From: Mytilus edulis
Taxonomy: Eukaryota
Direction: 5' to 3'
DNA: 64,000 bases
Assembly (NCBI RefSeq): GCF_963676685.1
Contig: NC_092348.1
Span: forward strand, 89,652,001 to 89,716,000
In this document: piece by piece, positions 9,838-28,715 of the stretch
Layout of the letters: each line of letters starts with the position of its first letter
Position numbering within the stretch: the first letter of the stretch is position 1
Made by a program: the position numbers and the translations under genes
The notes under the pieces: generated by a model
Databases searched by the model: none
The model's input: the letters and a program-made list of their open reading frames with translations, nothing else
What the model was told of the DNA's origin: nothing

Positions 9838-12800
9838 CTAATCATCATCCGCGTCGTTGCAATCTTCTAAAACAGTCTGATGAGTAAGCTGGTTTCTACA
9901 ATCATCACTGCCCTGACAACCACAAATGCTTGTGCATGACAAGTGTTGTTCATAACATACACATGATTTACCACAAATAGATTTGCCTTTGCATGTGCAA
10001 ACAAGGTCTTGTAAAAAGTCAGAAGACATTGGCCCCTCAAAATATAGTGGAACTATCGAGCTATTCCCCATTGTCCATCCATATTCAAGAGGTGATCTAG
10101 GTGGTGGTTTTGCAATATGGGCATTCATCCAGACGTACACTTGTAGGGATACTCTAAATATGTGTTGTCTGAAAGATGCTTTTGAAGGAGGAAGTCTCAC
10201 TAAGGAAGCATCCTTAGATAGCGCTGACTTCACTCGCAGTTTATTTAGATCACCATGTACAGATTGAGCCTTGACTTTGGGGTCATATAGATCAGCGATA
10301 AATTGTCTTCCCACTGTTACAGATGTTTTGATATCAGAACTAGCTAGATTGATCAAACTTTGATATCTTAATGGGTGTTGTTTTAATGTCTTGTATACTG
10401 TCTTTTTGCCTATTCCAAAGAAAGAAGACGTCGTGTCGCATCCCGTTAGAGCGTGATTAGCTGGTAATGTACTAGAAACCACTGGTCCAATGGCATTGTA
10501 TATATCGTGTACAGGTATAAACCGTCGGGCGTCTTTGGTTGAAGAAACGCATCCTGTCTGGAACCACAATTCATCAATGTTTGTCATTTTGGGAAAATAC
10601 CTTATACACAGAAGTAAAACATCAGTGTCCGATGATTTTATTACAATGCGACCTCTGGAATTGCTTTTTATTAGCTGTTCATTAGCAAACAGAGACTGTA
10701 GAATGATTCTTGTATCTGCCTCTTCCTGTGTACTGAACAACTGAATACAATCAGTAACAGTTCCGGCATAAATTTGTTTAACAGTCTCTGGGTTTTGAAA
10801 ACATCCAGCTAAGAATAGTTCGTCTTGCTCATTCAAATCGAATTCATTGAAGTGTGCGAGCGCATAGTCACCCAAAAATCTTAATAATGCTTGTTTATTT
10901 TCCGATGCACATAGAAATTTCTTCCAATCTGTAATTGACCTACCTTCAATGACCTGAAAAATCTTACCACCATTTGAAATAGACCGCCTCATTCTTTCTG
11001 CTGATTTTGTAGAATGTTCTACGTCATACCGATCAAACACGTCTACGACACACCCGAAATTTTCAAAACTTGCTATTAAAGTTCTAAAGTAGTCCTTGGC
11101 CAAATCTCCAAAACTGTTGTACCTTTTTACAAAAAGACTTTGAACAATACCCATGCCATCTCTGATAAGGATTGATCGATTCTTATCATACGGTGGAAGT
11201 GTGAAAGAGGTGCACACCTCTTTTTCCAATAGATGAATGAAATCTGCTTTGCATGATTTCCTCATCAACCCATCGTCATGGAAAATGGATGTTGGTATTC
11301 TACCGATGGGGTAAGCCAAAACCTTTTCAACGGTAACTTCGTCTCGGACATTTGCAAGGGCTAAAGCTCTTCGAAAGACAAGCTCGGGATTAATATGAGT
11401 TTTTACAATATCGCCAGATCGACATTTTAGATTGCATGGCTTTGCCATGTCGTCAAAGGTTTTGAGTGCAGATTTAGAAATTGGGGAAAAGAAGTCGCGA
11501 GTTTCGTTGTCTTTGAAACAACCATCTACAAAAGATTTCATCGATTTTTGTCCTCGATCTACAGAATTCAGCAGCGAATCTTCAACTTCTCTACTGGCAT
11601 GCAAACCTGTTGCAATGTTTATTAGCGATTTGGGACATTCTTCAATGTCGAATATCTGTCATATTATTTTGAACATGCTCAATAAGATCCTTCACTTGCT
11701 GCTCATCGCGTTTCATCGCTGTCGGTCTACTCTCTTCGTAATTTTCGTCAGAGCCAATAGCAATTTCAGACCTTTTCCTCATTTCAGAAGCGTACCTTGC
11801 AAGAATGTGCCTAGTAAAAGTCCAACGAAGAAGAGCAGATTTATGTGTAGTTAATCCGACTATACCGCCGTTTCCCTTCGAATCTTTGATTATAGTCTTC
11901 TCTGTTGCCATATCACTCCATATGCCATTGAAAACACCAGGCTTTTGTCTGACTGCAAACTTTCCGGACATGAAAGCTGAATAAGTTTCTTCTGGGAGAT
12001 TCAGCATGTCAATTAAATAAGTTGGTGTCCACCTAGCATAATTTGTCTTGTTTGCAATGAAGAAATATGGCAACATAGAAGACACGGATTGGAGGTGTAA
12101 AGTCCAATCTCCATCACGTTCTGCTTTGACATTCATTAGCATAACTTCAACGGCTCGTAAAAACATTTCCCAAAATTTAAAAGTTGGAGATGCTCTATAA
12201 GAAAACTCTCTGAACTCCGAAATCAACGGGGATAACTGTTCCCGGAAAAGAATTAAAAATTCAGAGAGATCTAATACCTTTGTATTAAGGTCACTGAATG
12301 CATTATGACAAGAAAGCATTGTTTGCCAGAACTTTTCGTCTATGTTAGCAATTTTTCGTTGGTTTGAACACCATTGAAAAAATTTCTTGAACCATAGTGC
12401 CATCACAGTTTCATATGCTAATGTGTAAGCTCTAACACCGCGATTAAACTGCTTGCCTTGAAGAATCTGATCTACAGTACATCCTGCATATGCACCCGAA
12501 TCGACCAATAAATCCCGAAGCCCAGCTAATGCCCATATTTTGCCTATTGCTGAAAGGTAACACGAAACCATGTGAAACCCACCTAATCTAACAACGTGTG
12601 GGTGAAAAATCTGAGGCATAGGCCACTTTACTTGTTGAGCTATGGCATAAAGCTGTTGGTCGAAGGTCTGTACTGGGTTATTCTGACCTGCGGCCTTTGA
12701 CATTTCTAGGCATTTCACCATTGTCGTATACACTGTCGCCATGTCAGCAGGTTTTGCGTCTATGATTGGAGGATATGCAACGACGACATGAATGTTTTTT

Positions 12801-14093
12801 CGGTCGGAAAGTCTTTTATGGAAGCCTGTCCAAAAAGGTATTATTTGTTTTTTATCATTTTGAAACCAAGGTAGTTCAGCAATGTCGCGTGTAAGTGATC
12901 GGAGCAATACCCAAGCCATATCAGACACGTCAGATTTATTGGTTGCACATGATTCGATTTGACCGTATGGCTCGGTACATCTAGGTGGGCCGAATCTTTC
13001 TTTAGGCTTACAGAAAGGCAAACATGACATGAGACTAGAAGTGTTTTCATCCAGAGCGAGGGATCTTTCTTGGCCGCGTTTTATTTTCACGTTAGCTAAG
13101 TCTGTCTGAAAAGTCGGATTATTATCAACCTGAAAAACTGCACGAGCCATAGAATGGAATGTGTTTTTACCATCAATAGTTTCTGCATTGATATCAACGT
13201 TGTCAGACCCTTCTTGAATGAAGTCTTCACCTGAAATTTTAGGACATATGCCATTGGGGATGTATGTTTCATTTTGGGAACTTATAATTTCATGGTTTGC
13301 TGAACTAGTCAGAAATTGTCTAACCTCAGTGTAAGACGCACAAAAGCCATGTGAATGTAAAGTTTCAATAAGATTTTTAGAACCATATTCATGATGCAAC
13401 TGAAGAGCCAATGATAAACTAAAAGGGGTGAACTGTTTTTTATGCAGAGATATCACACACTCGGCTAAAGCAATACATTTCCGTACCGTATCACCTGAGA
13501 GTGAATTGAAATCATTCTCCATATGAAAATAGTTATCATCTATTAATCTGGCAAGAAAGTTTATCAAAGAGGTAGGTATGAATTGTAAAGCCGTAGGGAT
13601 TGAAACTTCAGAAGGAGATGGATAAAATTCAGCCGAAATTTTGAAGGATTGTCAACTGCTTCTCAAAATTTTTGCCGCATCATGTAGGGTCTGATCTTCT
13701 TGATGTATGGAATCATTGACAAAACTGGTTTTCATCTCAGAAAATTTTAATTCCGCTTTTAAACTACTGGAAGCGCGAATAGCCTCAGAAACACTGATAG
13801 AGCTACTGAAAATCATATTTGATTTACCCTGTCCTCTTTGAGACTGAACAACAATGCGATCACCGTAGTGATTTTCCAGTTTGTGTTGCAGTTTATCAGT
13901 TGTATATCTACTTCTAATTTCTTGTGGAAGAAAGGAACAATATGTGTCTAATAAATTCGACAAAGAAAATGCTTTCTTATTAAAAAACAGATCATCGTGT
14001 AGAACTTCCGTCAGGTTCTTGAAAGCAATATCATGCTCCGACTCATTTGAAACATCATCAGAAGGTTCCCTTTTCCAGTTTAGCATATAGTTA
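9838..14093 (-). pseudogene. Academ transposase-XPG nuclease-Cys8/CXC polyprotein, central and C-terminal part (disrupted)
   Basis: Transposase motifs GSDNVD, TFDQQLY, RLGGFH, WSDMATEK. XPG/H3TH motifs DGMG, VFDRY, EEADTRI, SSDTDV, LTGCDTTSSFFGIGKK. Terminal CTCKGKSICGKSCVC..CTSICGC. Lesions: in-frame TGA at 13652-13654 (ILRSS*QSFK, same frame as the 641-aa ORF) and a frameshift near 11652 (MTD/FDIEE..LINIATG). Confidence 0.88.
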
Positions 14094-14524
14094 AGTAGTA
14101 TGAAATGGGGTCAGTCACCCACCAAAAACCCACCGGAAGCCACGTCACAGCTAATCCTCTTAACTATGACGTTAAATCCGGTCTATAATCTCTTAATCCT
14201 CTTAACTGCTACTTAACATCCGGGTTATAATCCTCTTAACTGAAGTGGGTTAATCTCTTAATCCTCTTAACTGCTACTTAACATCCTGGTTCTAATCTTC
14301 TTAACTGAAGTGGATTAATCTCCTAATCCTCTTAACTGCTACTTAACATCCTGGTTATAATCCTCTTAACTGAAGTGGATTAATCTCTTAATCTTCTTAA
14401 CTTGTACTTAACATCCTGGTTAAAATCCGGTGGGGGGAAAAATTAACGGACATGTTTTTTAATCCCCCCTACCCTCCTACGTATTATCTTGTAAACGTGG
14501 CATACACGTTGAGACATGCACGTT
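14094..14524 (+). repeat. Polinton left TIR with internal 65-bp tandem repeat
   Basis: Reverse complement of ~26784-27215 with few mismatches. Repeat units start at 14186, 14251, 14316 and 14381. Confidence 0.95.
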
Positions 14525-14639
14525 AACATCCTAAAGTTTAATCTTGTAAACGTATAATCTAAATGTAAAAAGTTTATAAACTAAGAAAAACGTTTACTAT
14601 ATAGCATACATCATTAGTAATTTCATAAGAACAAACAGT

Positions 14640-15248
14640 ATGAATCTCCAAAATTTTAATATGTATACACTTTTAAGAGAAAGAGAACTAACAGGGAAGA
14701 TCAGACGATCACGAAGAGGTCCCAAAAAGACTGCAAATTTGATAAGGAACAGGGTTGATAAACTTCATCATGAAGAACTATCTCGGTGTCCAGTAGAAAC
14801 ATGGCTTCTGAAAAACGGTTACATTGTTTGTATTCTATACAACTTTGAACACCACCCAGAGTTTATTGAAGATCTATATTTTTGTGGATGTTACTTTGAT
14901 GCAGTGTTAGCAGACTACAAGTTTATGGATCCTGTCAACTACCAATAAGAAAAAAATCCATGTATATCATTGACATGTGTACAACGGTCCTTTTAAGGAC
15001 CAACAAATCATTCAAAAAGAGTCTATTATTGTTGTACATGATCAGTTCGTTTTTCTTCTCCGACGAATATGAAATATCTACAAAAGGTTCACAACTTGTT
15101 TATTTTCGAAGAAAAGAAAACTAGATTGTATATTTTATTACTTTCAATTGATAAACATACATTATTTCAACTAAAACAACAATATGATAACAAAAGTTTT
15201 CATATTGAACATTGGAAATTACATCTTCTTAATGAAATTCTACTATAA
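14640..15248 (+). pseudogene. Polinton accessory gene of unknown function, probably frameshifted
   Basis: 102-aa ORF 14640-14948. Coding-like frames continue after apparent shifts near 14943 (IRKKSMYIIDMC..) and ~15110, ending at TAA 15248. Confidence 0.5.
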
Positions 15249-15304
15249 AATATAGACATATATATATATTTTGTGTATTTAAAAAAAAATATATTTCGAG
15301 TTAA

Positions 15305-15536
15305 GATGTCAGAGAGGATGAGCACAGAAAACCTTCAAACAAAGTGGTGTTTTTTCGGACAGAATGTACCAAAAGCAGAGATCGTGTATTTTTGTCAGAT
15401 GATAATAGTCTTCATAATTGTTATTGCGGCAGTTGTTAATTTATCAACACAAAATGGGAGTATAGAACTATGGGTTAGTTTATTAAGTGGTTGTACTGGT
15501 TACATTTTACCAAACCCTTCTATAAATAAAATATAA
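15305..15536 (+). CDS. Small two-helix membrane protein of a type seen in Polintons
   Basis: EIVYFCQMIIVFIIVIAAVVNLS and LWVSLLSGCTGYILPNP hydrophobic segments; first ATG at about 15305. Confidence 0.7.
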
Positions 15537-15964
15537 ATGAGATTCACATAAAAAGAAGGGAGGAAAAAAAGTATTCGAGTAACCCTCCTTCTAACCACGT
15601 GACCGAAACGTTCACCATACGTTTCGTTTATCTCTTAATGAATCATCATGAACAATTTAAGCCGCTACCACAACTATAAAAGCACACAGTTATATCAATG
15701 GCACAGGCACAGGTTGATTTATCCAAATAGGTGTACGGTTGTGACTTTGATCACTTGCATACTGATTTATTCAAGAAACAGATCGAGTGTTTAATTGATG
15801 AAACAACAAAAGTGGTGGTGAAGAAAAGAGAAAACATACTCGAATACAGCTTGTTGTTAAAGGGGAAAAGATTCCGATCACTAAAGAAAATTGGACGAAA
15901 CTGTGTTATCTAAAGGACAGCATCTTATTTTTTCATTCATTTATAGACGAACACTGATAGTACA

Positions 15965-16371
15965 ATGGTGGCAATTAAAGTTGGTATGGAAAAAAGACTT
16001 CTTTCAACTATATTACTGTTTTCTTTTGCTGAATTATTGGATGAAATGGTGCAACAATTATCAAAGAAGTTTTGTCAGGGATGCAAAGTGGAACATGGAT
16101 CACAACATAGACACACGAATGTTTGATGGATAGTGAACTAGATAAACTCGAAAAACATTTTGATCAGGCGTTCTGCGAGTTTAAATACAGTCACATACTA
16201 GGAAAATACAGAGAGAATGTGAGAACATTGACCTTGGAAAATAGTGTCGTTTTAAACTTTTTCATTCTTCATGTTTTGTTCATGGACACGCTCCGATCAG
16301 AAAAAATGAAAGTGAGTGTTTATAATTTAATGGAAAGGAAATTAAAACTTGAAGGACGTTTCACACAGTAA
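15965..16371 (+). pseudogene. Polinton accessory protein with CxGC..HxSQxxHxC motif (frameshifted)
   Basis: MVAIKVG..KKFCQGCKVEHGSQHRH, then an extra AC in ACACAC at ~16112, resuming ECLMDSELDKL..GRFTQ. A possible splice acceptor at 15947 suggests an upstream exon. Confidence 0.6.
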
Positions 16372-16499
16372 TATTGTATTTTGTGTAAATATATGTATAT
16401 TTCATTGAATAAATTTATATTGATGTGGAATTTTTTGTTGTGTATTTATTTTCTGGTAAAGATACAAAATGTTATATCATTTCATTAGTTTTCGTATTC

Positions 16500-16692
16500 A
16501 TTCGTATATTTCCGTATGTATATATATTTCCGGTAGTATTCGGAAACATTCGTTTATTTCCGAATGTATAATTATTTCCGGTAGTAGTCGGAAACATTCG
16601 TTTATTTCCGAATGTAAAGTAATTTCCGATCATTTCCGGAATCGTTCGTTGATATCTGCTTTTTCATTCCGGAATTATTGGGTTGATTCCGT
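16500..16692. repeat. ~45-bp tandem repeat rich in TTCCG/CGGAA inside the Polinton
   Basis: TATTTCCGGTAGTATTCGGAAACATTCGTTTATTTCCGAATGTA twice, plus degenerate copies. Confidence 0.75.
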
Positions 16693-16947
16693 ATTTTACT
16701 TCATTGGTTGCATTTTATTGTGTACTTCATTTCTTTTTTCTGGTTATGTATTTTGTTTCTTTTTTTTCTTGATGGTGATTTATTTTGATTCTTGTTTCAC
16801 TCTCTGGTGGTATATTTATTTGTCAAATAAAATAAACCAAAATAATTAGAAACATCAGTGTATAAAACAAACACATATCTCGAAAAATAAACACAACGAC
16901 ATGAAGACAATTAAGGTGTAGACAACAAACAAACAAACAAAAAAACA

Positions 16948-17613
16948 ATGTGTGAAGACCAGGAGAAAGTGCTTTTACCATTTCAGTCACCGTGTTGTAT
17001 ACAAATAGTTGGACCTACTCAGTCAGGAAAAACCATGCTTACATATAAAATACTAGCTCAATCTAAATACCTATTTACAAAAACACCAAAGAAAACCATT
17101 TATTGCTACTCTGCATATCAGGATTTGTTTTCAGAGATGGAGAGGAAAATTGAAAACATAACTTTTCACGAAGGGTTACCAACTAGTGAGGAAATTGATA
17201 AATGGTCAGAAAATAAAGAACATATGATTCTTTGTCTTGATGATTTATTGTGTCAAGCTGCAAACTCTAGTGATGTTTTAAACCTTTTTACCGTTAAATC
17301 TCATCATTGTAACATATCAGTTTTGTTTTTGATGCAAAATATTTTCCCTCCTGGAAAATGCATTCGTACTATTTCGTTAAATGCGACATACATAATCTGT
17401 CTTAAAAACCAACGTGACAAACACCAGTTATCAGTATTAGGAAGGCAGATTCTCCCAGGTCAATTAGACTATTTCATGTCAGCTTATGAAAAGGCAGTTT
17501 CTTTAATATATGGATATATTATTATTGATTTGTCAACACACACAGATAAAAAATATTTATTGAGAACAAACATTTTCAAAGGAGAAGATCCAGTAATTTT
17601 CGTTCCGAAATGA
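16948..17613 (+). CDS. Genome-packaging ATPase (A32/FtsK-HerA family)
   Basis: Walker A GPTQSGKT, Walker B LCLDD, SHHCNISVLFLMQN, RTISLNATYI; intact 221 aa. Confidence 0.93.
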   Translation: MCEDQEKVLLPFQSPCCIQIVGPTQSGKTMLTYKILAQSKYLFTKTPKKTIYCYSAYQDLFSEMERKIENITFHEGLPTSEEIDKWSENKEHMILCLDDLLCQAANSSDVLNLFTVKSHHCNISVLFLMQNIFPPGKCIRTISLNATYIICLKNQRDKHQLSVLGRQILPGQLDYFMSAYEKAVSLIYGYIIIDLSTHTDKKYLLRTNIFKGEDPVIFVPK

Positions 17614-17924
17614 GTAAACAAGTTTTAGCCCATGTACATTTTTTATCACTTTTAATTTCATGTGAGGAAGAACAGAAAATTGCATTGTTGAAGACCATGA
17701 ACGATAAACAATTTCAACTTTTAGTTGAATGTTTTTTAAATGTGTTATGTGGGGTATTTCAGCTTAGTCAATCAGATAAAAAGAAACTCATGAGATATAA
17801 AAACATTATTCGGAAAATAACAGATAGAGAGACAACACGTATTCTAAGAAAAAAATTGTTACTTAAATATCGTAACATTATTTCTATCATTGTTAAACCA
17901 ATACTTGATACAATTTCAAAATGA
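17610..17924 (+). CDS. Basic conserved Polinton protein (putative virion core protein)
   Basis: ECFLNVLCG..LSQSDKKKLMRYKNIIRKI pattern; ATGA overlap with the ATPase stop. Confidence 0.7.
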   Translation: MSKQVLAHVHFLSLLISCEEEQKIALLKTMNDKQFQLLVECFLNVLCGVFQLSQSDKKKLMRYKNIIRKITDRETTRILRKKLLLKYRNIISIIVKPILDTISK

Positions 17925-18514
17925 CGAAAGAAATGATTCTTCTGCCAAAACATAGATATGAAAGTATAATACGAACAGAAAACAATGAAAGCGATAAACA
18001 AACTAGTGCTAAGGAAGAAATTTCACCCCGGGAGGATATTAAAACAGAAAAAGATAGTTCAGATGATTTGAACACTTTGATCGAGCTGACCATACCAGTG
18101 AAATACAGAGAAAAGGCAAAAACACTATTGCAATTTCTTCAGAGTCAGTCTACAATAAGTTGGAACAAACATGGAAAAGTTAAGATCAACAACGAAACTG
18201 TACCAAACTCTCATATTGTTGACTTATTGCGGGATGTTGTCATTCCTTATGGATGCAAACAACTACCAAGTGGACATGAAATATTTTATGATTTTCTTAA
18301 AAATATTCACATACCTATGGGACTAATTTCAAATAGAATGAGAAAACAACTGGTTCAATCTGATATACAAACAACAGAGGAAAATGAACAATTAGCTGAA
18401 AGTGAACCAGAGAAAAATAAGAAGAGGAAGATTAATAAACTTTTTGTTAGGAGGGAACTCTCGAGACTGTTTGAAGAAAAACCTAAACTAAAATGGAAAA
18501 GATTCAAACTATAG
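17921..18514 (+). CDS. Conserved Polinton protein of unknown function
   Basis: ISWNKHGKVKINNETVPNSHIVDLLRD..PSGHEIF..IPMGLISN..LKWKRF pattern; ATGA overlap with the previous stop. Confidence 0.72.
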   Translation: MTKEMILLPKHRYESIIRTENNESDKQTSAKEEISPREDIKTEKDSSDDLNTLIELTIPVKYREKAKTLLQFLQSQSTISWNKHGKVKINNETVPNSHIVDLLRDVVIPYGCKQLPSGHEIFYDFLKNIHIPMGLISNRMRKQLVQSDIQTTEENEQLAESEPEKNKKRKINKLFVRRELSRLFEEKPKLKWKRFKL

Positions 18515-18898
18515 CATCATAACTAATGAACAATTGATAAAATATGTTATTTTCTATGTCAAAATAAAGATGGATAAAAAAGTGTTTTTTGGTTTTTCTT
18601 TTAATTTTATTTCCATGTTACAATCTAAAAACTAACTTGAGTTGTTCCATATACTTTAATGTAAAAAATAAATCATAAAAAAAACAGCAGAAAAAAACAA
18701 TAAAAAAAAAACAACAACAAAAATACTTTCAATGTACAAAAAAACCATAATATATATTTATTTTTCATTTTCAGGTACAACCCCAATATTATACACTTTG
18801 ATTTGATAAAAAAAAACCTATAAAAACTATTCTTATGATTACTTTTAATAAGACTCTTGTAGTTGTTAGAAGTAACATCTTATCAAAATAACCTGAGT

Positions 18899-20037
18899 AT
18901 GAATGAGGAACTAGATTCTCTCCTGAGTAAATACTATTATGACGTTGGAGGACCAGCTTCATATGCTTCTGCCCCGAAAAACTATATCACATTGTAAATG
19001 CAGAGGGCAAAAGAGTTGGAAGATATAAAATAAGACGGTGGTTAAATTCACAAGATAATTACAGTTTACAAAAAACACCTCGTCGTTCTTTTAAAAGAAT
19101 AAGAGTTTACACAACGGGGATGAATAATTTGTGGGATGCTGATTTAATGGACCTAAAACAATTTTCAAAAGAAAATGAAAATTTCAAATACGTATTAGTT
19201 GTTGTTGATTGTTTTTCACGCTATCTTTGGTTACAACCATTGAAAAATAAAACGGGAGACGAAGTCACCTCTGCATTTAAAAAGATTTTCACTGAGGTAA
19301 AACCAGAAAAAATTCGAACAGATAAGGGACAAGAATTTCTAGCAAAAAAGACACAATCGTTATTTAAAAGTAACGGTGTCCGACATTTTTCGGCTCAAAA
19401 TGAACTTCATGCAAATTATGCTGAAAGGGTCCTACAAACTATAAAGAATAAAATTTTTCGCTTTTTCACAAAGAATAGAACTCACAGATATATTAACAAC
19501 TTGCAAAATTTTGCAAAAAGCTATAATGGTACTCCACATAGAAGTTTACAAAACATTGCACCTAAAGATGTTAATTCTGTCAACGAAAGTGATATCTGGG
19601 GGAAAATGTATTTAAGTAAAACAGAGAAGAAACCAAAAGAAATAAAAGTACAAACAAACAAAAAGAAACGGAGGAAAAAACAATTCAAATACAAAATTGG
19701 GTCTTTAGTTCGACTGTCAAATATTGCTCATATTTTTGATCGATCCTACAGCCAAAGATGGACGGAAGAGATATTCAAAGTGGTGCAAAGATTCAGACAA
19801 CAAAATATTGATCTTTACAGGCTTTCAAATATAAAAGGAGATGAATTTATAAGGGGGACCTTTTATGATAGTGAGCTCCAAAGAGTAGAGAAAGATGAAA
19901 ATAGTCTTTGGATAATTGAAAAAATTATAAAGAAAAGAAAAAGACGAGGAAAAACTGAGTACTTGGTTCGTTTTCAAGGGTGGCCTCCTTCGTATGACGA
20001 ATACATACCAGCAGAACAAATTCAATCTTTATCATAA
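18899..20037 (+). CDS. Retroviral-type (RVE) integrase with C-terminal chromodomain; 1-nt frameshift near the 5' end
   Basis: DDE motifs WDADLMD, RTDKGQEF, YAERV. Chromodomain IEKIIKKR..EYLVRFQGWPPSYDEYIP. The N-terminus MNEELDSLLSKYYYDVGGPASYASA(P) from ATG 18899 joins EKLYHIV.. only through a shift at GCCCCG 18971-18976. Confidence 0.93.
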
Positions 20038-20462
20038 TGGAACATATAATTTTCATTCGAAGTGATCAATCAGATGCATATTACCCTAATAATTCACCGT
20101 TCAAGTTCAAAGTGTGTTTAAATGAAGTTTTACAATTACAAGGTGAATGGAAACTGGGAATATTAGATTTTTACATTGATCAAAAAGTTACAAAAAAGAA
20201 CAATCATCAATTATACTTGTTTTGTGATGTATGCAGTGGAGTAAATGTTTTCCCTAATATACAATATTCACTTTTGAGAAGAATATTTCCCACGGATATG
20301 AGTACATGGAATTATATTTTTTCTTTTCCAATATATTTACCAGTAAAGAAAAACGAAATTCAAGTCTTAGAATTTCTTATAAAAGACGAACACGGAGAAA
20401 ACGCTTCATTTTTGAAGAATAATTTGTCGTTTACACTACAATTTATACCAAGCTTATTTTAG
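20037..20462 (+). CDS. Minor capsid (penton-like, single jelly-roll) protein
   Basis: SDQSDAYYPNNSPFKFKVCL..LQGEWKLGI, LYLFCD, SLLRRI, YLPV..IKDEHGE pattern; positioned directly after the integrase. Confidence 0.8.
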   Translation: MEHIIFIRSDQSDAYYPNNSPFKFKVCLNEVLQLQGEWKLGILDFYIDQKVTKKNNHQLYLFCDVCSGVNVFPNIQYSLLRRIFPTDMSTWNYIFSFPIYLPVKKNEIQVLEFLIKDEHGENASFLKNNLSFTLQFIPSLF

Positions 20463-20469
20463 CGCAGAT

Positions 20470-20865
20470 ATGACAAATACTGATAAAATGTACATTCCTA
20501 ATGTTAATCAATGGACAAGATATTATCAGAATGTAGTTAGTGGTCAATCAAATGCTTACGTAAATCATATGAAATCTGGATATAACAAAGGATCGCAATC
20601 GGGATCATTTATGATACCAATTTCGAATAAATCTTATCCAATTCGTGTAGAAAAAGAAAACAATTTTGTTGTGCGTTTAGTGTCACCTAGTGAACAAATT
20701 GTAAATCAAGCAAAAGAAGAGATAAAAATTGACGATGAGAGTATAAATAAAACGGACAGAAAGAGAAAATATCATCATTCGCCACAAAGCAGAGGAGGTG
20801 AAAAGAAGCCGAAGAAATCGAAAATAACTGTTAAAAAACATAAAAGGGATATATTTTCAACATAA
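20470..20865 (+). CDS. Polinton protein with basic C-terminus (putative core protein)
   Basis: YIPNVNQWTRYY, VRLVSPSEQIVNQAKEE, K/R-rich tail; TAATG overlap with the MCP start. Confidence 0.7.
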   Translation: MTNTDKMYIPNVNQWTRYYQNVVSGQSNAYVNHMKSGYNKGSQSGSFMIPISNKSYPIRVEKENNFVVRLVSPSEQIVNQAKEEIKIDDESINKTDRKRKYHHSPQSRGGEKKPKKSKITVKKHKRDIFST

Positions 20866-22171
20866 TGTCCTTGTTAACAAAAGAGAATTTTATTGAAGCA
20901 CAACCGTCAGAGTTTTTGAGATACCCCCATACCAAGTAGGTGTTGAAAGTATAACATACGAGGAATGCAGACCTGTTAGTCAAATAACTGCTTACAATCC
21001 TATAGAATTCGATCTATGTGCAAACAATGGTATGGACTATATTGATCTTAAAAGATCAAAACTATACGTGAAATTAAAAGTGAAAAAAGCAAATGGTGAG
21101 GATTTACAAGATGGCGATACGGTAGGACCTGTGAACTTATTTTTACAGTCGCTTTGGTCGCAATTGGATGTGTATATACAAGGACAAATGGTAACGTCTA
21201 GTAATACGTATTACCCGTATAAATGTATGATGAAAACGTTACTGCAGTATGGCCAGGACGCAAAGAGTACACAATTATCTTCTAGTCTATACTTAAAAGA
21301 TAGATATGGACACATGGATGAAATATCGACTAACACTGGACTGTATGAACGCAGAAAATTTATTTCTAATTCGAAAACATTAGAAATAGAGGGACCAATT
21401 TTTTCCGATATATTTGAGATGGATAGATACCTGCTAAATATGTTATTCCTTAAACTAAAACTATACCGCAACGATGCAAGTTTTTGTTTGATGTCTGGAG
21501 AAATTGATACCAACTATCATATTTCTTTGGAAGATGTCGTGATCAAGCTTTGCAAGATCAGACCTAACCCAGCTATAATTGTCGCTCATTCAGAAGCTTT
21601 AAAGACAACAAATGCTAAGTATCCTTTCACAAAAACCATGATGAAAAATTTTACAATCATGCAAGGAAGCACCTCTTTAATCGTAGAAAATGTTTTCCAA
21701 GATGTGAAACCAAAAAGTATTGTGCTTGGATTGGTTTCTTCAACTGCTATGTCTGGAGCATATACAAAAAACCCATTCAACTTTATGAATTATGATTTAA
21801 AACAAGTGACTCTGTTTTGTGACGGAATACCAGTTGATGGCATACCACTCAAACTTGATTTCAACGAGAATAGTGGTGCAACGAACGTTTCTCCTTATGT
21901 AAAAATGTTCGAAACACGAGGAAAGTGGTTGTTGGATACGGGGAATGAAATAACAAGGGCTGAATTCAACAATGGATATACGCTTCTATGCTTCAACTTA
22001 GAACCATTCTTTTCGGATACCAAATATCTTTCACTACTGAAGCAGGGAAAAATACGCTTGGAATGTCAGTTCGGTACGCCATTAACAGAAACAGCTGCCT
22101 TACTGATTTTAGCTGAAAATTATGGATACTTTGAAATAACTGAGAATCGACAAATAAAGATTGAACACTAA
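20865..22171 (+). CDS. Major capsid protein (double jelly-roll, hexon-like); frameshift near the 5' end
   Basis: MSLLTKENFIEAQPSE, then a shift near 20913 to FEIPPYQVGVE..CRPVS..PIEF..DYIDL. Further motifs NLFLQSLWSQLDV, YYPYK, KNPFNF, GYTLLCFNL. Confidence 0.9.
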
Positions 22172-22827
22172 CATTTCAATGTAAATTGAATTTATCATGA
22201 CTATAACTGTTTGTTATTATTGTGTAGATCTAAAAAAAATTATAATGTGTGCTTTACTAATAAATATATTCAAATAAACGAAAACAAACAACTGCGTTCA
22301 TTGATACATTATGTTTTATTTCAATCAGACAGGATGCAAAAAAAAAAACAGGAATAAAGAAAATATATATGTAAAAATACAATACATGAAAAAAGTAACC
22401 CAATTACCCTCAAACATACTAACGAAAACTATATACAATAAGTTTTAATAAAAAATATGATGCATCTACAATCTCCCTCACTATATGTAAAAATCATATT
22501 TAAATCACCACAAATTTTGATATACAAAAAAAATCCCCACTTCGTTCTCTTGTTATAAATACAAAAAGAAAAAACAAAACAAAACAAAACAAAACAAACA
22601 AAACCCCCAAAAAAATTAATGAATATTTAAATTTATAATTAAATACATATAAACAATAACCCTCAAATGAACAAATAATAACATCCCTCACTATATGTTA
22701 AATTAGTATTTAAATCACCACAAATCTTGATTTAGAAAAAAAAATTCAACAAAATAATATCACAAATACGAAATAGTTATAACAAATAAGAATTGAAATG
22801 TCTTTAAACGTTTTACATGATGAATGT

Positions 22828-25800
22828 TTATATGTTATCTTTATGTCCAAAGGCTCTCGTTGTCACACCATCATCTAAAATCCATCTTTTATCATCAAAA
22901 GGAACTAATGATTTTTTATTAATAGTTTTGGAATATAAAACATGGCTTTCGCTTCTTATAATATTCATTTCAGAACGTGTAACAGTTTTATCGAAAAGAC
23001 AATTTTTATACATTTCATGTTTAAGTTTTCTGGATGCAGTTTTTGTTACTCCTTTTGCAGTATGCTTTTCTCCACCTTCAAAAGAAAATGAATACATCTT
23101 CGATCTCAGTCCAACAAATTCACTTATTGGGGTTCCACTTGTTTCATCCTTGAATTTACCTATTACTTTTTTATTTTCGATATCATGTAAAAAATGTTCT
23201 GGTGGATAATCACTCGTATCATACATATCTTGATATTGATGCATATCTTCATACACATCTTCCGTTTCAACGTGATATAAAAAGCTATCAGTATCAGAAA
23301 AACACACACGAATTTTATCACCATACAGAGATTTCATATGGTTATAATGAAAATCGTACATCAAAAACTTGGATAAGTCTAAAATGCAAAAACCTACATA
23401 TATTGGTTGTTTCATTAAAACATTCACACGTTTTTTCGCTACTGCCACCAAATTTTCGTTAAATATTTTGCAAGATGCGTAGGATGGTTTCGCTGTTTCT
23501 TTATTAAGTTTCTCTTCCGTGTGACAAAGTTTTACATCTTTATGCTTGCGTGTATTGAGGAGAGTTCGACCAAAAATTGAATTATTCATCAGCTTATATA
23601 AACATTTTTCAAATTCATTCTTTGCATTTTTCCTTTTTTCTGTGTTAAAGTCTATATACTTCTTCAACCAGGGACATTGTTTAAACTTGAGTACTCTATG
23701 TATCTTTTTGATCTTCAATCCTAACTCTACGTATAGTTGTAAGTTTCTATAATGCACTATGTACTTTTCCTTGTCGTATAGGTTAGGAACGAGTTTTTCA
23801 ATCTTTGTTAAACATTGTTTTCCAGTTAAATTTTGCAATAATTCCTTTGAATACGGAGATAAATGTTCTACTTGAATATGCTTTCTTTCTGGAGCTAAGG
23901 GAAAATCCGAATGAGAAGAATGAAGTGACGAAGGATATTCAAGGTCAACTTCGAAAATGTATCCGTCTGAACCGTCAGCTTTTAATTTTGTGATATCTAA
24001 TTTTATTTTCTCCTCCTCGGTAAGCCAGTTGAAATGACCATACGGAAGACATTGAGACATGCTCCAACCATATAAATTATTTGCGTCTAAATAAGATAAA
24101 TAGGAAGTAGGTTCAGTTGGTTCATACGTATCGAATAAGTATGGATTGTTTGCTTTAGCATATCGATGAAAAATACTAGATACACCGCCTCGTATTCCCT
24201 TCTCTACAAACAGCATCATATCTATATCAGTGATTAAATCGAGTACAATTCCAGTTTTCTTCAGCATGGCACTCCAACTAAATCCGGGGGTGGTGAAATA
24301 ATGACAAGGATCCAAATCATAGTCGTGTAAAGAAATGTCTCTAAATTTTTCAAAAACATCTGCCAAAAGAGCTACATCCATTTTAAGATACACATCGGAG
24401 TATTCCCCCAATGTTTTTACTTTCAGTTTGTCCCACACTGTTTGCGCAAATTGATAATCTTCATCAGATATGTGAGTGTCTCCTAATTTGTTAAAAAAAT
24501 CTTCTTTGGATGGTAAACAAGGTTTTTCCAATTTCTGCTCGGTATCGACATAATCATAGGGGAATACTCCTTTTCGTAGCAATAGAGAAAATACATCTGG
24601 ATCCGGAAACGTTTTAGATAAGTAATTGAAATGTTTTTCTCCTTCGTCAGCCAGATTTTTTGTTAAAGTTGCCAGTGAACTGTTTAAAAATTGCAAAGAA
24701 TCGATAAAGCGGAGATTTCCTATAGAAAATGACATATATTTTTCTTTGTTGTGTGGAATAACAGTGATGTCTTGTTCCTTAAACTTTCCTATTTTACTCA
24801 TGATGAGATTTGCATCAAATCCTTTCAAATTATGAATAACAACAGGTATAAATTTCGGTATTTTGATCTGTAAATTGTAATTATTACAAGAAATGCCACG
24901 AATGAACCCAGTCACGTGATCGTGTTCCTTGACTTTGTAATTTTTGCTGCTGAAAGCTTTTTTACATACATAACATTTTTTGGCATATTTGTAGTCTAAT
25001 TTATCATACTCAGTTATTATCATTGGCTCGATGCGGCTAAGTATGTCTCTAATTTCTTTCTCCTCTTCAAGAAGATGACGGATAAAGTTCTCCACAACAT
25101 CAGGTCCACGGTATATGACGGGTGGTTTGTCGTATCGCTTATCAATTGACACTCTTTGATATCCAAAACTGTACGGTTCCATTTGTTGGTATGTAGTTGT
25201 ACTTGACATGTTTGGATTCGGATGACAAGTATCGACTTTCCTTGTTAAACACTCAAAATCAGCATAGATTACAAACGGAATTCGGGCGGTTTTCGCATAT
25301 TCTTTGAATTCCAGAACTTCTCCCTCCTTGGGAAGTGTAATTTTCTGAAAATCAAATTTTCCACAGTCTGCTTTATGCCTCTCTAGTTTGCATTTATCAG
25401 TAAATCCTTGCAAGCAAAGATAACAAAAAAAATGTTCCTCACGATGTTTCTTTGTCCTCGATAAAAACCTGTTAAAGTTGTTTATCAGTACATAATGACT
25501 TTTGTTGTTTTCTTTTAAATATAATATATTCACATGATGACAGAAGGTTTTCTTTGTGATGTATAACGGGTAGATTTCTCCTTCTTCGTATCCAAAAATG
25601 TTAACTGAAATAGTGGTATTCTGTTTTTCGAATTGTGATATTTGAGATAACGGAGTGGGATACTCGATACCAGTCATGTTAACTGAGTTAACAAATGGAA
25701 CATAATTCTCTACATTTTCTGGATTTTGTTGAAAGTTATGCATACTGGAAAGAACAGTCCATAAAAAACATTTGTTGTCCAAGTTCTGAATGTTGAGTAT

Positions 25801-26709
25801 ACAGTTCGATCTTTTGAGTGATGTTGGTAGTTCTAAATAACTACCTCCTTTTAATGGTTTGTACTTTGTGACGCACAGATCAAGTTGTAAAACCTCTTCA
25901 AGTTGCCATCCACTCCCATTCTTGATGAATTCTTCGAAAGAAATGAATATTTTTTGAAATCCTTTATTCAACTCGTGAGGTATTTCACTAGCACCAGATT
26001 GTAAAATGGTACTCACTTTAGTATTGAAATGCGGTTCAGCTTCGTCGTATTTGCCATCTGGTGAATATTTAATCATTCTTACATGTACACTCATATAAAA
26101 CTTTATATTGTTTTTAAGTAGTCTGTCCTCTAATATTTGCGCAATATCCACTTGTTTTTCTTTGAAAAATAACATCAAGTCATATCTTTCTTCATTGTTG
26201 CTGGGTTGTAATTGAATATTTTCCACACCATCGTTCAGAGCTGTTGCTGTTAACGATCTTTTCTCTCTTGCATTGCGTACTCGTTCCTCGGGAAGTTGGT
26301 CAACATCTTCTGTCCTCTGACGTTTACGGGGGGGTTGTACGTCGTCTTCCTTCTGTACGTTTTTCTTTACATCATGTTTTCTCTTCATATGTTTAGTTAA
26401 AACATCTTTTCTTTTCGTGGTGAAACCACAATGTTCACATTCATAGTTTATATTCGAATGGTTCTGTTGGTGTCGAATCAAATAAGCTTTTCTTGCATAC
26501 CTCATACCGCATGTTTGACACTCAAAATTTGATACATTATCTTCATCTGGAACACTGTCATATTTTCCCGTAGTAGTTTGATCAAATTGTTTTTCAGTTG
26601 GATTTTGCTGCTTAACTGATTGTAAGACTGTATTAAAGTCCTGCGCTGACAGTTGCTGTAACTTCTGTAACACATCATGTGGAATATCTTTTACCAGTTG
26701 GTCAATCAT
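22828..26709 (-). CDS. Protein-primed family B DNA polymerase (pPolB), intact, about 1293 aa
   Basis: Exo motifs YADFE, HNLKGFD, YLKMDV. Polymerase motifs YLDANNLYGWSM, KLMNNSIFG, SDTDS. N-terminal two C2H2 fingers, GSGW, DNKCFLW..HY, and an EndoVII-like insert. First ATG at 26709 (the track start 26730 is TTG). Confidence 0.97.
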   Translation of the reverse strand: MIDQLVKDIPHDVLQKLQQLSAQDFNTVLQSVKQQNPTEKQFDQTTTGKYDSVPDEDNVSNFECQTCGMRYARKAYLIRHQQNHSNINYECEHCGFTTKRKDVLTKHMKRKHDVKKNVQKEDDVQPPRKRQRTEDVDQLPEERVRNAREKRSLTATALNDGVENIQLQPSNNEERYDLMLFFKEKQVDIAQILEDRLLKNNIKFYMSVHVRMIKYSPDGKYDEAEPHFNTKVSTILQSGASEIPHELNKGFQKIFISFEEFIKNGSGWQLEEVLQLDLCVTKYKPLKGGSYLELPTSLKRSNCILNIQNLDNKCFLWTVLSSMHNFQQNPENVENYVPFVNSVNMTGIEYPTPLSQISQFEKQNTTISVNIFGYEEGEIYPLYITKKTFCHHVNILYLKENNKSHYVLINNFNRFLSRTKKHREEHFFCYLCLQGFTDKCKLERHKADCGKFDFQKITLPKEGEVLEFKEYAKTARIPFVIYADFECLTRKVDTCHPNPNMSSTTTYQQMEPYSFGYQRVSIDKRYDKPPVIYRGPDVVENFIRHLLEEEKEIRDILSRIEPMIITEYDKLDYKYAKKCYVCKKAFSSKNYKVKEHDHVTGFIRGISCNNYNLQIKIPKFIPVVIHNLKGFDANLIMSKIGKFKEQDITVIPHNKEKYMSFSIGNLRFIDSLQFLNSSLATLTKNLADEGEKHFNYLSKTFPDPDVFSLLLRKGVFPYDYVDTEQKLEKPCLPSKEDFFNKLGDTHISDEDYQFAQTVWDKLKVKTLGEYSDVYLKMDVALLADVFEKFRDISLHDYDLDPCHYFTTPGFSWSAMLKKTGIVLDLITDIDMMLFVEKGIRGGVSSIFHRYAKANNPYLFDTYEPTEPTSYLSYLDANNLYGWSMSQCLPYGHFNWLTEEEKIKLDITKLKADGSDGYIFEVDLEYPSSLHSSHSDFPLAPERKHIQVEHLSPYSKELLQNLTGKQCLTKIEKLVPNLYDKEKYIVHYRNLQLYVELGLKIKKIHRVLKFKQCPWLKKYIDFNTEKRKNAKNEFEKCLYKLMNNSIFGRTLLNTRKHKDVKLCHTEEKLNKETAKPSYASCKIFNENLVAVAKKRVNVLMKQPIYVGFCILDLSKFLMYDFHYNHMKSLYGDKIRVCFSDTDSFLYHVETEDVYEDMHQYQDMYDTSDYPPEHFLHDIENKKVIGKFKDETSGTPISEFVGLRSKMYSFSFEGGEKHTAKGVTKTASRKLKHEMYKNCLFDKTVTRSEMNIIRSESHVLYSKTINKKSLVPFDDKRWILDDGVTTRAFGHKDNI

Positions 26710-26734
26710 ATGTTGGTTAAAATTTTCCAACTTG

Positions 26735-26772
26735 AATGAATGATTGAAACTAGTTCACATTGAATTATATAC
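26735..26772 (-). promoter_or_regulatory. Candidate TATA/Inr promoter of pPolB just inside the right TIR
   Basis: Minus strand GTATATAATT, with TCATTCATT about 25-30 nt downstream, ahead of ATG 26709. Confidence 0.45.
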
Positions 26773-26783
26773 TAAGGGGTTTA

Positions 26784-27215
26784 AACGTGGATGTATCAAC
26801 GTGTATGCCACGTTTACAAGATCTTACGTAGGAGGGTAGGGGGGGATTAAAAAACATGTCCGTTAATTTTTTCCCCCACCGGATTTTAACCAGGATGTTA
26901 AGTACAAGTTAAGAAGATTAAGAGATTAATCCACTTCAGTTAAGAGGATTATAACCAGGATGTTAGGTAGCAGTTAAGAGGATTAGGAGATTAATCCACT
27001 TCAGTTAAGAGGATTATAACCAGGATGTTAAGTAGCAGTTAAGAGGATTAAGAGATTAACCCACTTCAGTTAAGAGGATTATAACCCGGATGTTAAGTAG
27101 CAGTTAAGAGGATTAAGAGATTATAGACCGGATTTAACGTCATAGTTAAGAGGATTAGCTGTGACGTGGCTTCCGGTGGGTTTTTGGTGGGTGACTGACC
27201 CCATTTCATACTACT
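26784..27215 (-). repeat. Polinton right TIR
   Basis: Inverted copy of the left TIR, including the 65-bp array. Confidence 0.95.
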
Positions 27216-27793
27216 TAGTTAGCAATGCATGTTGAATGATACAGTGCCTTGTCCTTGAAGTTCTCCATAGATAGTAAACTTACCATTTGATAGTCAAACT
27301 TGTCTTTTGCTGCATTTAATATATTATCAGCACGTTCAACAGACTCGACTCGCCTTAATTGCTTATCTCGCTTGTAGGACTTTTGTTTACAGAACAAACA
27401 TTTAGACCAGTCTGATTGTAATACCGTTGAGCGTGTTTTAACACAAGTTGGTTCAAACACAGAATGGTTTGCACTCGATGTTGAGCATACTTCTTTCCCT
27501 ATTTGAAATGTTTCCAAGTTTTTTTTACTTGTATATGCTTTATAACACGACCTATGATATTTTATTTGTTCTAATGGAATCACTTTCGTTGACTCAAATT
27601 CATTATAAAGGCGGTGATAAACAATACCCTGTCTGACATCTATTGCGTCTAAAAGAGTAGTCTTCCCCTTTTCTGTTGCATTTGACAAATTTTCATAAGT
27701 AGATATTTGGCAAATAACGCATAATTCCCAATTACTATTAAGCCTAATCCTTTTTGGAACTGAGTGAGCAAACTTAACAGGACTCGTGTCCAT
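27216..27793 (-). pseudogene. Academ polyprotein N-terminus, cut off by the Polinton insertion
   Basis: Two WxxCxxC..YHxxC zinc-binding units. Removing 14094-27221 restores the continuous frame YHSTCIAN-Y-MLNWKREP. Confidence 0.9.
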
Positions 27794-28715
27794 TATTTTC
27801 CGGGTTATTTCGGGGGTGTACCAATTTGGTTTAAAATTAGTTTATTCAACAAAATCAACAAGAAATAAAACAACTAAAAAACACTAACACATAAAATCTG
27901 TATACTCAGTCAAAAACTATACATTGACATTGATATGAATATGTCTTACTATAGATGAAATTAAAGAAAATACACAGTTTTATTCTCTGAGGAAAAAACA
28001 GCAAATCATAAGTCAGGGGAAAATATGAAAAGGGAAAGCAACAAGACTTAATGAGGTGAAAATCAAATAGTAAAACTGCTAAATGATAAGTATTATAAAA
28101 CGGCCCGAAAAACTTAATTTGCATGCTTTTTCGAAATTGTATGCATTAAAACTTCTTGCATATTGATTATTATATTGTTTTTTGTCAAAATGTACCACTG
28201 ATGATATATATTAGAAATGTTATATACTTTGTCAGACGGTAACATTGAAAAAAAATGACATAAATATTTGAAAATCGTCCAATTCACTTAATTTATATGT
28301 TCATATGATAAGAAAGTTTGATATCAAATTAAAGCTGATACATTACTCTTTCATCTGATAACAACTTTTGTGATGATATCTTCATTCGGGAATTAGTTAT
28401 AAACATTCCCGTTTTTGAAAATGAAAAAGAAAAAAATCGGAAAGTCACACTTTATCGCAATTTTACAAAAAACTGCACCTCGGGAAAACTCTACGACAGG
28501 GCTAAAATGAAAGTATAATGTTAACTCTATCTTCATGTGCATTTTCAGCCGTGAGGTATTTCGGTGCATTAAACTCCTTAACTAAGCGACTTTTCCTGAT
28601 TTGTCACTCCACTATAAAGAATAACTCTGAATCAAATAAAAAATTCTCTGAAATCGATATTACCAAGATGCTTGATTTTTTTTTATTACAAAATATTTGG
28701 GACGTTTGGATCGTG

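Follow-up and report, generated by a model that had tools for sequence, protein, structure and literature searches.

The genome of Mytilus edulis contains a 13.1-kb Polinton that retains seven of the eight Maverick core genes, the absentee being the adenain-type protease (PRO). The element occupies positions 14094-27215 of the window, i.e., of the whole analyzed stretch of 64,000 nucleotides (RefSeq assembly GCF_963676685.1, contig NC_092348.1, positions 89,652,001 to 89,716,000 of the forward strand). Its small accessory open reading frames (ORFs) are followed by the genes for the packaging ATPase, PM, PZ, the integrase (INT), the penton, PW, and the major capsid protein (MCP), and then, in reverse orientation, by pPolB; PM, PZ, and PW were named by position, following the gene arrangement given in PMC8097293. 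PRO was found neither in the searched copies of the family of this element, here called family A, nor in those of a second family, B. Probably, the loss of the CE-clan maturation protease is old in the clade formed by the two families, the clade has become adapted to it, and the element belongs, as a young copy, to an integrating, adintovirus-type family.

Absence of the protease in two families

A preliminary description, made from the letters of the window, had noticed no adenain-like ORF or remnant, and neither Pfam, a dedicated profile, nor tblastn provided a credible match in the element. Pfam (E<=1) returned no C5, C48, or C57 match in 19 ORFs, and the same held for 53 additional stop-to-stop frames from non-core regions; control proteases matched Peptidase_C5 in 3/3 cases. 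The profile search over all six frames, proposed as a check at the outset, was run with stops as X and a profile of 39 natural Polinton proteases of the same genome, whose sources were Peptidase_C5 matches and ORFs after MCP in other families. The best score was -3.0 bits, compared with 92 and 140 bits for non-seed proteases and mostly 11-38 bits for edge fragments of 25-50 residues; one 20-residue piece was missed. The best tblastn match of the 39 proteases (E=8e-4) is located in frame within pPolB and was taken as chance. Both gaps described as AT-rich and noncoding, 18514-18899 and 22171-22828, are so (21% and 22% GC) and hold no protease remnant. No protease signal was detected in PZ, and no small ORF could be recognized as the divergent protease that had been considered there.

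Family A is represented in the genome by 14 MCPs with 98-100% identity. PRO was searched for in 13 of the copies (one over only 15 of 38 kb; the fourteenth, insertion-inflated, was inspected at the junction only) and found in none, all 24 family-A stretches scoring below 3 bits with the profile. It was likewise not found in nine loci of family B (20 family-B or fragment stretches below 3 bits), which have 62-73% MCP identity to A and a 299-bp spacer in place of PRO. Genome-wide, Peptidase_C5 matched 73 times (E<=1), never inside a family-A or family-B copy. At the other Polinton loci, PRO stands directly after MCP in 17 of 18 cases (73-198 bits, two of them non-seed). The eighteenth locus (C11:45.16 Mb) was rejected as a second independent loss, because the first codons of PRO are kept and it represents a truncated relic. 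The suspected protease-less lineage is thus upheld and extends to a second family.

The MCP-pPolB junction is collinear over its full length in nine family-A copies including this one, with 95-100% identity. The remaining junctions show a short deletion in two copies, a 3.9-kb insertion without protease signal in one, and a fold-back after MCP in two. Nine sisters have both ends, each with a distinct 6-bp target site duplication (TSD), and private synonymous changes amount to about 0.3% per copy, so the family-A insertions are young. A copy-specific deletion, which a protease in a sister copy would have indicated, was therefore rejected: nine copies share one and the same junction, no searched sister has PRO, and the TSDs differ. 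An artefact in the wider sense, including an assembly error or an unrecognizably divergent protease in the small ORFs, is extremely improbable. The small ORFs and PZ are without an assigned fold, and two copies with large insertions were covered in part, but the junction is also collinear in contigs of the independent run X1, and the unassigned ORFs have at most 134 aa except PZ, whose homologues occur together with PRO in other families.

Trees of INT, ATPase, pPolB, and MCP, in which the most distant family was assumed to be the root and four near-duplicate loci were left out, show families A and B as monophyletic (bootstrap 99-100). As one clade nested among PRO-bearing lineages, they point to a loss of PRO that is old and derived. 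An MCP tree with database proteins gave a clade support of 1.0 and added seven lineages with 60-67% identity. Both families occur in several Mytilus species (MCP identity 93-99.8%). No contigs around clade relatives outside this genome were found in viral or genome contig collections; metagenome contigs included one family-A contig of 3.7 kb that ends about 200 bp past MCP.

Rearranged forms were observed in both families. Seven family-B loci (L083-L096; C12:57.74, C10:4.86, C3:30.57, C8:77.80, C7:6.97, C8:21.15, and C9:65.24 Mb) have no pPolB within the 19 kb fetched. They retain integrase, penton, PW, MCP, and ATPase, and their inverted ends of about 2 kb contain PM and PZ. Three of them have distinct perfect 6-bp TSDs, and this polymerase-less, protease-less form has therefore transposed repeatedly. 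The pPolB-bearing family-B element (L081-L082) has the family-A gene blocks in circularly permuted order between its terminal inverted repeats (TIRs). In two family-A copies (L137-L140; C5:33.92 and C6:19.68 Mb), an inverted piece of the left arm follows MCP instead of pPolB, as in snap-back defective genomes. In runs X1 and X17, the depth over pPolB is likewise much reduced.

State and gene content of the element

The initial claim of a complete element with both TIRs and a TSD is borne out by inverted arms of 378 nt each (14092-14469 and 26840-27217; 99% complementary), by the termini AGTAGT...ACTACT, and by the 6-bp duplication TAGTTA on either flank. The insertion site is located inside a long minus-strand host ORF, both halves of which join at the duplication. 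ATPase, integrase, penton, MCP, and pPolB are all present as described, but integrase and MCP are frameshifted here (near 18972 and 20913, private to this copy and seen in no compared sister), and the penton is recognized by synteny and homology only. Two small left-arm ORFs are disrupted as well. The element is complete end to end, yet damaged rather than intact.

The ATPase matches Pox_A32 in Pfam (E=4e-4) and has Walker A and B motifs; the integrase matches rve (E=6e-14) and carries a chromodomain, its reading frame being open in the sisters. The structural model of MCP (pLDDT 89) identifies it as a double jelly-roll capsid protein, with Foldseek matches (E 1e-15) to the double jelly-roll capsids of Sputnik, PBCV-1, and iridovirus. 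The penton is a conserved gene in a syntenic place for which a PDB profile search gave nothing significant. In pPolB, no match to the Pfam family DNA_pol_B_2 was obtained; the Exo/Pol motifs are present, and identity to other Polinton pPolBs of the genome is 40-50%. Its further parts, with domain names after PMC11161782, are two C2H2 fingers, a terminal-protein region, the motif LKGG (286-289), a putative vOTU protease domain (Cys314/His405), and an endonuclease VII-like insert. The Cys/His motifs of the vOTU-type domain are aligned across families, and a role in releasing the terminal protein has been proposed for it (PMC11161782). Since pPolB keeps this domain, the missing enzyme is the CE-clan maturation protease, and the element is not protease-free.

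By its polymerase, integrase, and ends, the element is a Polinton. An rve integrase, long TIRs, AGTAGT termini, a 6-bp TSD, a packaging ATPase, a double jelly-roll MCP, and pPolB were all found, and only PRO is missing from the typical core, namely, the adenain/Ulp1-like protease that belongs to the eight-gene core of Barreat and defines adintoviruses by their adenain. The MCP groups with those of animal Polintons, and the marks of Polinton-like viruses (PLVs), i.e., a PLV MCP and usually no pPolB or rve, are not those of this element.

Selection on the capsid genes

Selection was measured on variants shared between family-A copies. MCP has 4 nonsynonymous and 27 synonymous changes (omega 0.04, p=5e-15), and omega is 0.13 for the ATPase and 0.07-0.25 for pPolB. 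Penton and PW lean toward purifying selection with too few changes (p 0.09 and 0.05), and no purifying selection was detected in the shared variants of PZ and the accessory ORFs. The capsid has thus stayed under purifying selection despite the loss of the protease.

The synonymous variants that copies share cluster in MCP and pPolB (20865-26709) and are few in the left-hand genes, a pattern suggestive of recombination between two sub-lineages.

Candidate protease sites in PW and pPolB

In PRO-bearing families, PW has Q-x-G-G (once H-S-G-R-G) at one linker position in 10/10 aligned sequences; beyond these ten, two distant families have other glycine motifs and one PW was not retrieved. At the same position, the motif is found in none of the PWs of family A, family B, and P0002. 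The family-A site reads NKGS where P0260, the fragment closest to A, has QRGG. With Q/H-x-G-G or Q/H-x-G-x-G scored on the alignment, the motif is present library-wide in 107/137 PWs outside the clade versus 2/13 inside, and shuffled linkers contain it in a mean of 14/150. Sufficient coverage was available for 150 of 162 PW sequences (12 were left out, including P0260, which was counted separately), and the PW tree, built without the linker from 64 columns, supports the clade with 0.92. PWs of the clade are also smaller and less charged, with 121-131 aa and 24-25 K+R compared with 150-182 aa and 34-50 K+R in PRO-bearing families. The related sequence QTGG is the SUMO tail that is cut by Ulp1/SENP enzymes.

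Seven PW homologues outside the clade without a glycine motif (P0237, P0242, P0251, P0254, P0262, P0264, and P0293) are, judged by their sequences, candidates for further protease-less lineages.

In pPolB, Q-x-G-G or Q-x-G-x-G occurs in 10 of the 13 PRO-bearing loci having a pPolB match and in none of A or B. In six PRO-bearing loci, the alignment (without L112) places the motif after the zinc fingers and ahead of the terminal-protein region; A is without it. The loss of Q-x-G-G from both PW and pPolB in family A therefore favors independence from the protease over borrowing of a foreign one.

Probable loss of proteolytic maturation

In ordinary relatives, PRO may cut the basic core protein PW after Q-x-G-G, by analogy with adenain on pVII and pX, and may trim the zinc-finger leader off the terminal-protein end of pPolB after the same motif, as adenain does on pTP. 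For core proteins and pTP, the reported adenain sites are (M/I/L)XGG-X and (M/I/L)XGX-G (PMC7998265); the syntenic adomavirus core protein LO6, which has adenain motifs, is reported to be cleaved in virions (10.1101/341131). In the clade, PW would remain uncut and condense DNA as a shorter, less basic protein, and genome release would need no cleavage. The ATPase would fill particles that, as in protease-less PLVs, are used without proteolytic maturation, and the vOTU domain would still free the terminal protein for replication. More tentatively, with a chance not quite even, the clade forms transmissible particles without proteolytic maturation and has lost protease and recognition sites together, so that the degenerate sites would reveal Q-x-G-G in PW and in the pPolB leader as natural substrates of the Polinton protease.

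Several observations weigh against the main interpretation, the loss of proteolytic maturation. Q-x-G-G is no more than a candidate cleavage site of Polinton proteases. The motif counts lack phylogenetic independence, and the Fisher test for the linker motif (p=1e-5) overstates the case because the PW rows are related. P0196 and P0201 read QNGG, P0206 RNGG, and P0260 QRGG within the clade or next to it, all known here from protein sequences alone, and 17/137 PWs outside the clade are without any linker glycine motif. QRGR is the reading in the PW of the truncated relic, which belongs to a PRO-bearing family. Family-B pPolB contains NVGG and IKGG close to the motif position, and G-G or G-x-G persists in the basic tail of PW (SRGG in A, SGVG in B, and DGVG in P0002). 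RNA reads numbered 122 in one run, mostly of the antisense-type strand for stranded libraries, and 0 in another, too few to demonstrate expression; contigs of run X1 extend collinearly through all 30 bins but may be DNA. Selection on the capsid is indirect evidence of an active virus.

The preliminary description had offered two mechanisms, a different maturation route and a protease borrowed in trans, and the second is weakened by the missing motifs in A even though donors exist. PRO of a co-resident Polinton or a host SENP/Ulp1 enzyme would in the latter case act at relocated or noncanonical sites such as the G-G of the PW tail. Many PRO-bearing families are co-resident, one with 21 equal-scoring MCP and PRO matches, and the clade also yields dependent, pPolB-less derivatives. 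The glycine pair or G-x-G stands at one aligned tail place in A, B, and P0002, and the mavirus protease, which cuts GG|X and GX|G, is described as requiring nothing more (PMC6048507). However, a borrower should retain the canonical motifs, and those of two different proteins are both gone in A; moreover, no Gln is conserved at P4 of the tail motif, and PRO-bearing PWs do not conserve this motif. Borrowing is therefore regarded as unlikely.

It is improbable that the family moves only inside the genome without any infectious particle and that its capsid proteins form a shell for replication or integration within the cell, for which maturation would be unnecessary. Polinton virions have not been observed according to 10.1101/2023.08.22.554363 and 10.64898/2026.06.19.733378, maturation is tied to entry and uncoating in adenovirus (PMC7998265) and mavirus (PMC6048507), and no expression was found in the RNA runs, in which reads were sparse. 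Against such a shell stand the omega of MCP and the retention of ATPase, penton, and PW across A and B, as well as the high MCP identity among several Mytilus species, which fits but does not prove host-to-host transfer.

It is very doubtful that the maturation cuts are now made by the vOTU domain of pPolB, which would be packaged at or close to the ends of the genome. Its Cys/His motifs are intact, LKGG lies just upstream in A, and pPolB is under purifying selection, but PRO-bearing families have the domain and the upstream glycine motif just as well, family B reads YAGS at this motif, and at least six pPolB-less family-B copies have spread with the capsid module. The preferred interpretation remains that the clade dispensed with maturation and has an uncut, shorter core protein in a conserved shell.

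No Polinton virion has been studied. The clade represents a natural knockout, in which the protease is gone, the capsid is under selection, and two conserved glycine motifs are eroded, and it names candidate substrates of the Polinton protease. Lineages of this kind would escape surveys that start from the protease or filter on it, such as PMC8502044 and 10.1101/2023.08.22.554363.

Annotated features and further Polinton loci

Coordinates of all features are compiled in Table 1. Among the accessory genes, the counterpart of the 76-aa hydrophobic ORF also adjoins PRO in one distant family, and homologues of the Cys/His-rich ORF occur in PRO-bearing families, too.

Table 1. Features of the family-A Polinton and its flanks (window positions)
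Feature	Position	Strand	Remarks
Left TSD	14088..14093		TAGTTA
Left TIR	14094..14469	+	begins AGTAGT; 65-bp internal repeats
Accessory ORF	14640..14948	+	102 aa; 42% to family B counterpart; no family match
Accessory ORF	15069..15248	+	59 aa; common to family B
Hydrophobic ORF	15306..15536	+	76 aa; putative membrane protein (from sequence); ~70% to family B
Accessory ORF	15698..15957	+	86 aa in sisters; broken in this copy
Cys/His-rich accessory ORF	15965..16371	+	134 aa in sisters; frameshift near 16111 here
A32/FtsK-like packaging ATPase	16948..17613	+	Walker A GPTQSGKT
PM-position gene	17610..17924	+	104 aa; synteny after ATPase as in PMC8097293
PZ-position gene	17921..18514	+	197 aa; no protease signal
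AT-rich spacer	18515..18898		21% GC; no protease remnant
rve integrase with C-terminal chromodomain	18899..20037	+	frameshift near 18972 here only
Minor capsid protein (penton)	20037..20462	+	synteny and homology
PW, putative core protein	20470..20865	+	131 aa; basic
Degenerate candidate cleavage site in PW	20584..20595	+	NKGS, opposite QRGG of close homologue P0260
MCP	20865..22171	+	
AT-rich spacer	22172..22827		22% GC; 60-bp direct repeat; slot held by PRO in other families
pPolB	22828..26709	-	1293 aa
Right TIR	26840..27215	-	ends ACTACT
Right TSD	27216..27221		TAGTTA

The host element split by the insertion (9838-14093 and 27216-27841 of the window, minus strand; frames of 606, 669, 152, and 208 aa) has no clear Pfam family (DUF6589 E=0.04) and is probably an unclassified DNA transposon. 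Elsewhere in the genome, a PRO-bearing Polinton family (L117-L118, C1:72.45 Mb and 20 other places) has 21 equal-scoring MCP and protease matches, which suggests a very recent burst. Several protease matches of the loci L031-L060 lie in long frames with an upstream part resembling the ATPase C terminus, and a multicopy set of protease frames of about 143 aa from these loci stops early, after the catalytic Cys motif.

Comparison with known systems

The absence of PRO from a Polinton is by itself not new. The preliminary description treated the protease as a core gene of animal Polintons, which is correct in the sense of typical and overstated in the sense of universal: PMC4028283 gives PRO for 74% of 72 Polintons, and its Table S1 lists Polinton-1_DGr, Polinton1_SM, Polinton-N1_NV, and N1A_NV with MCP, penton, and ATPase and no protease. 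Unlike family A, these four come from other phyla and, as far as compared, are tabulated only, with no test of loss across a clade, of selection, or of substrate sites; the comparison with them is by listing. The literature searched, which left out most subscription papers and Repbase, describes neither a Polinton clade of molluscs without protease nor Q-x-G-G in PW. Nor was any stable clade reported there that has both lost the protease and eroded its sites, and the supplements of PMC8502044, PMC11071296, and bioRxiv papers may list such elements.

The element resembles the Polintons/Mavericks known as adintoviruses (Polintoviricetes), with their F54H12.2-like MCP, in its TIRs, AGTAGT ends, 6-bp TSD, vOTU-bearing pPolB, and rve integrase with chromodomain. 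The ATPase-PM-PZ and INT-penton-PW-MCP modules are shared with the PRO-bearing families of the same genome and with homologues in Pecten, Pinctada, and Ostrea. Unlike these, family A has no PRO after MCP, a shorter and less basic PW without Q-x-G-G, and a pPolB without this motif; furthermore, the ATPase module is relocated away from MCP, and pPolB is convergent on MCP.

The gene order of the late module of adenoviruses and adomaviruses (penton, core protein, hexon, and adenain) is the same as in family A. In these viruses, the protease is described as essential, the core protein is cut by adenain at glycine motifs, and pTP is also processed, with M/I/L and not Gln at P4. PLVs and Tlr elements also combine capsid, penton, and ATPase genes without a maturation protease (PMC4642659; PMC4028283), and PLVs without PRO are also reported in 10.64898/2026.06.19.733378. 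In contrast to family A, PLVs and Tlr elements have different MCP groups, mostly protist hosts, and mostly neither pPolB nor rve. The protease loss in family A is secondary, within animal Polintons, and the clade provides a model of how the protease-less state of PLVs can arise through loss.

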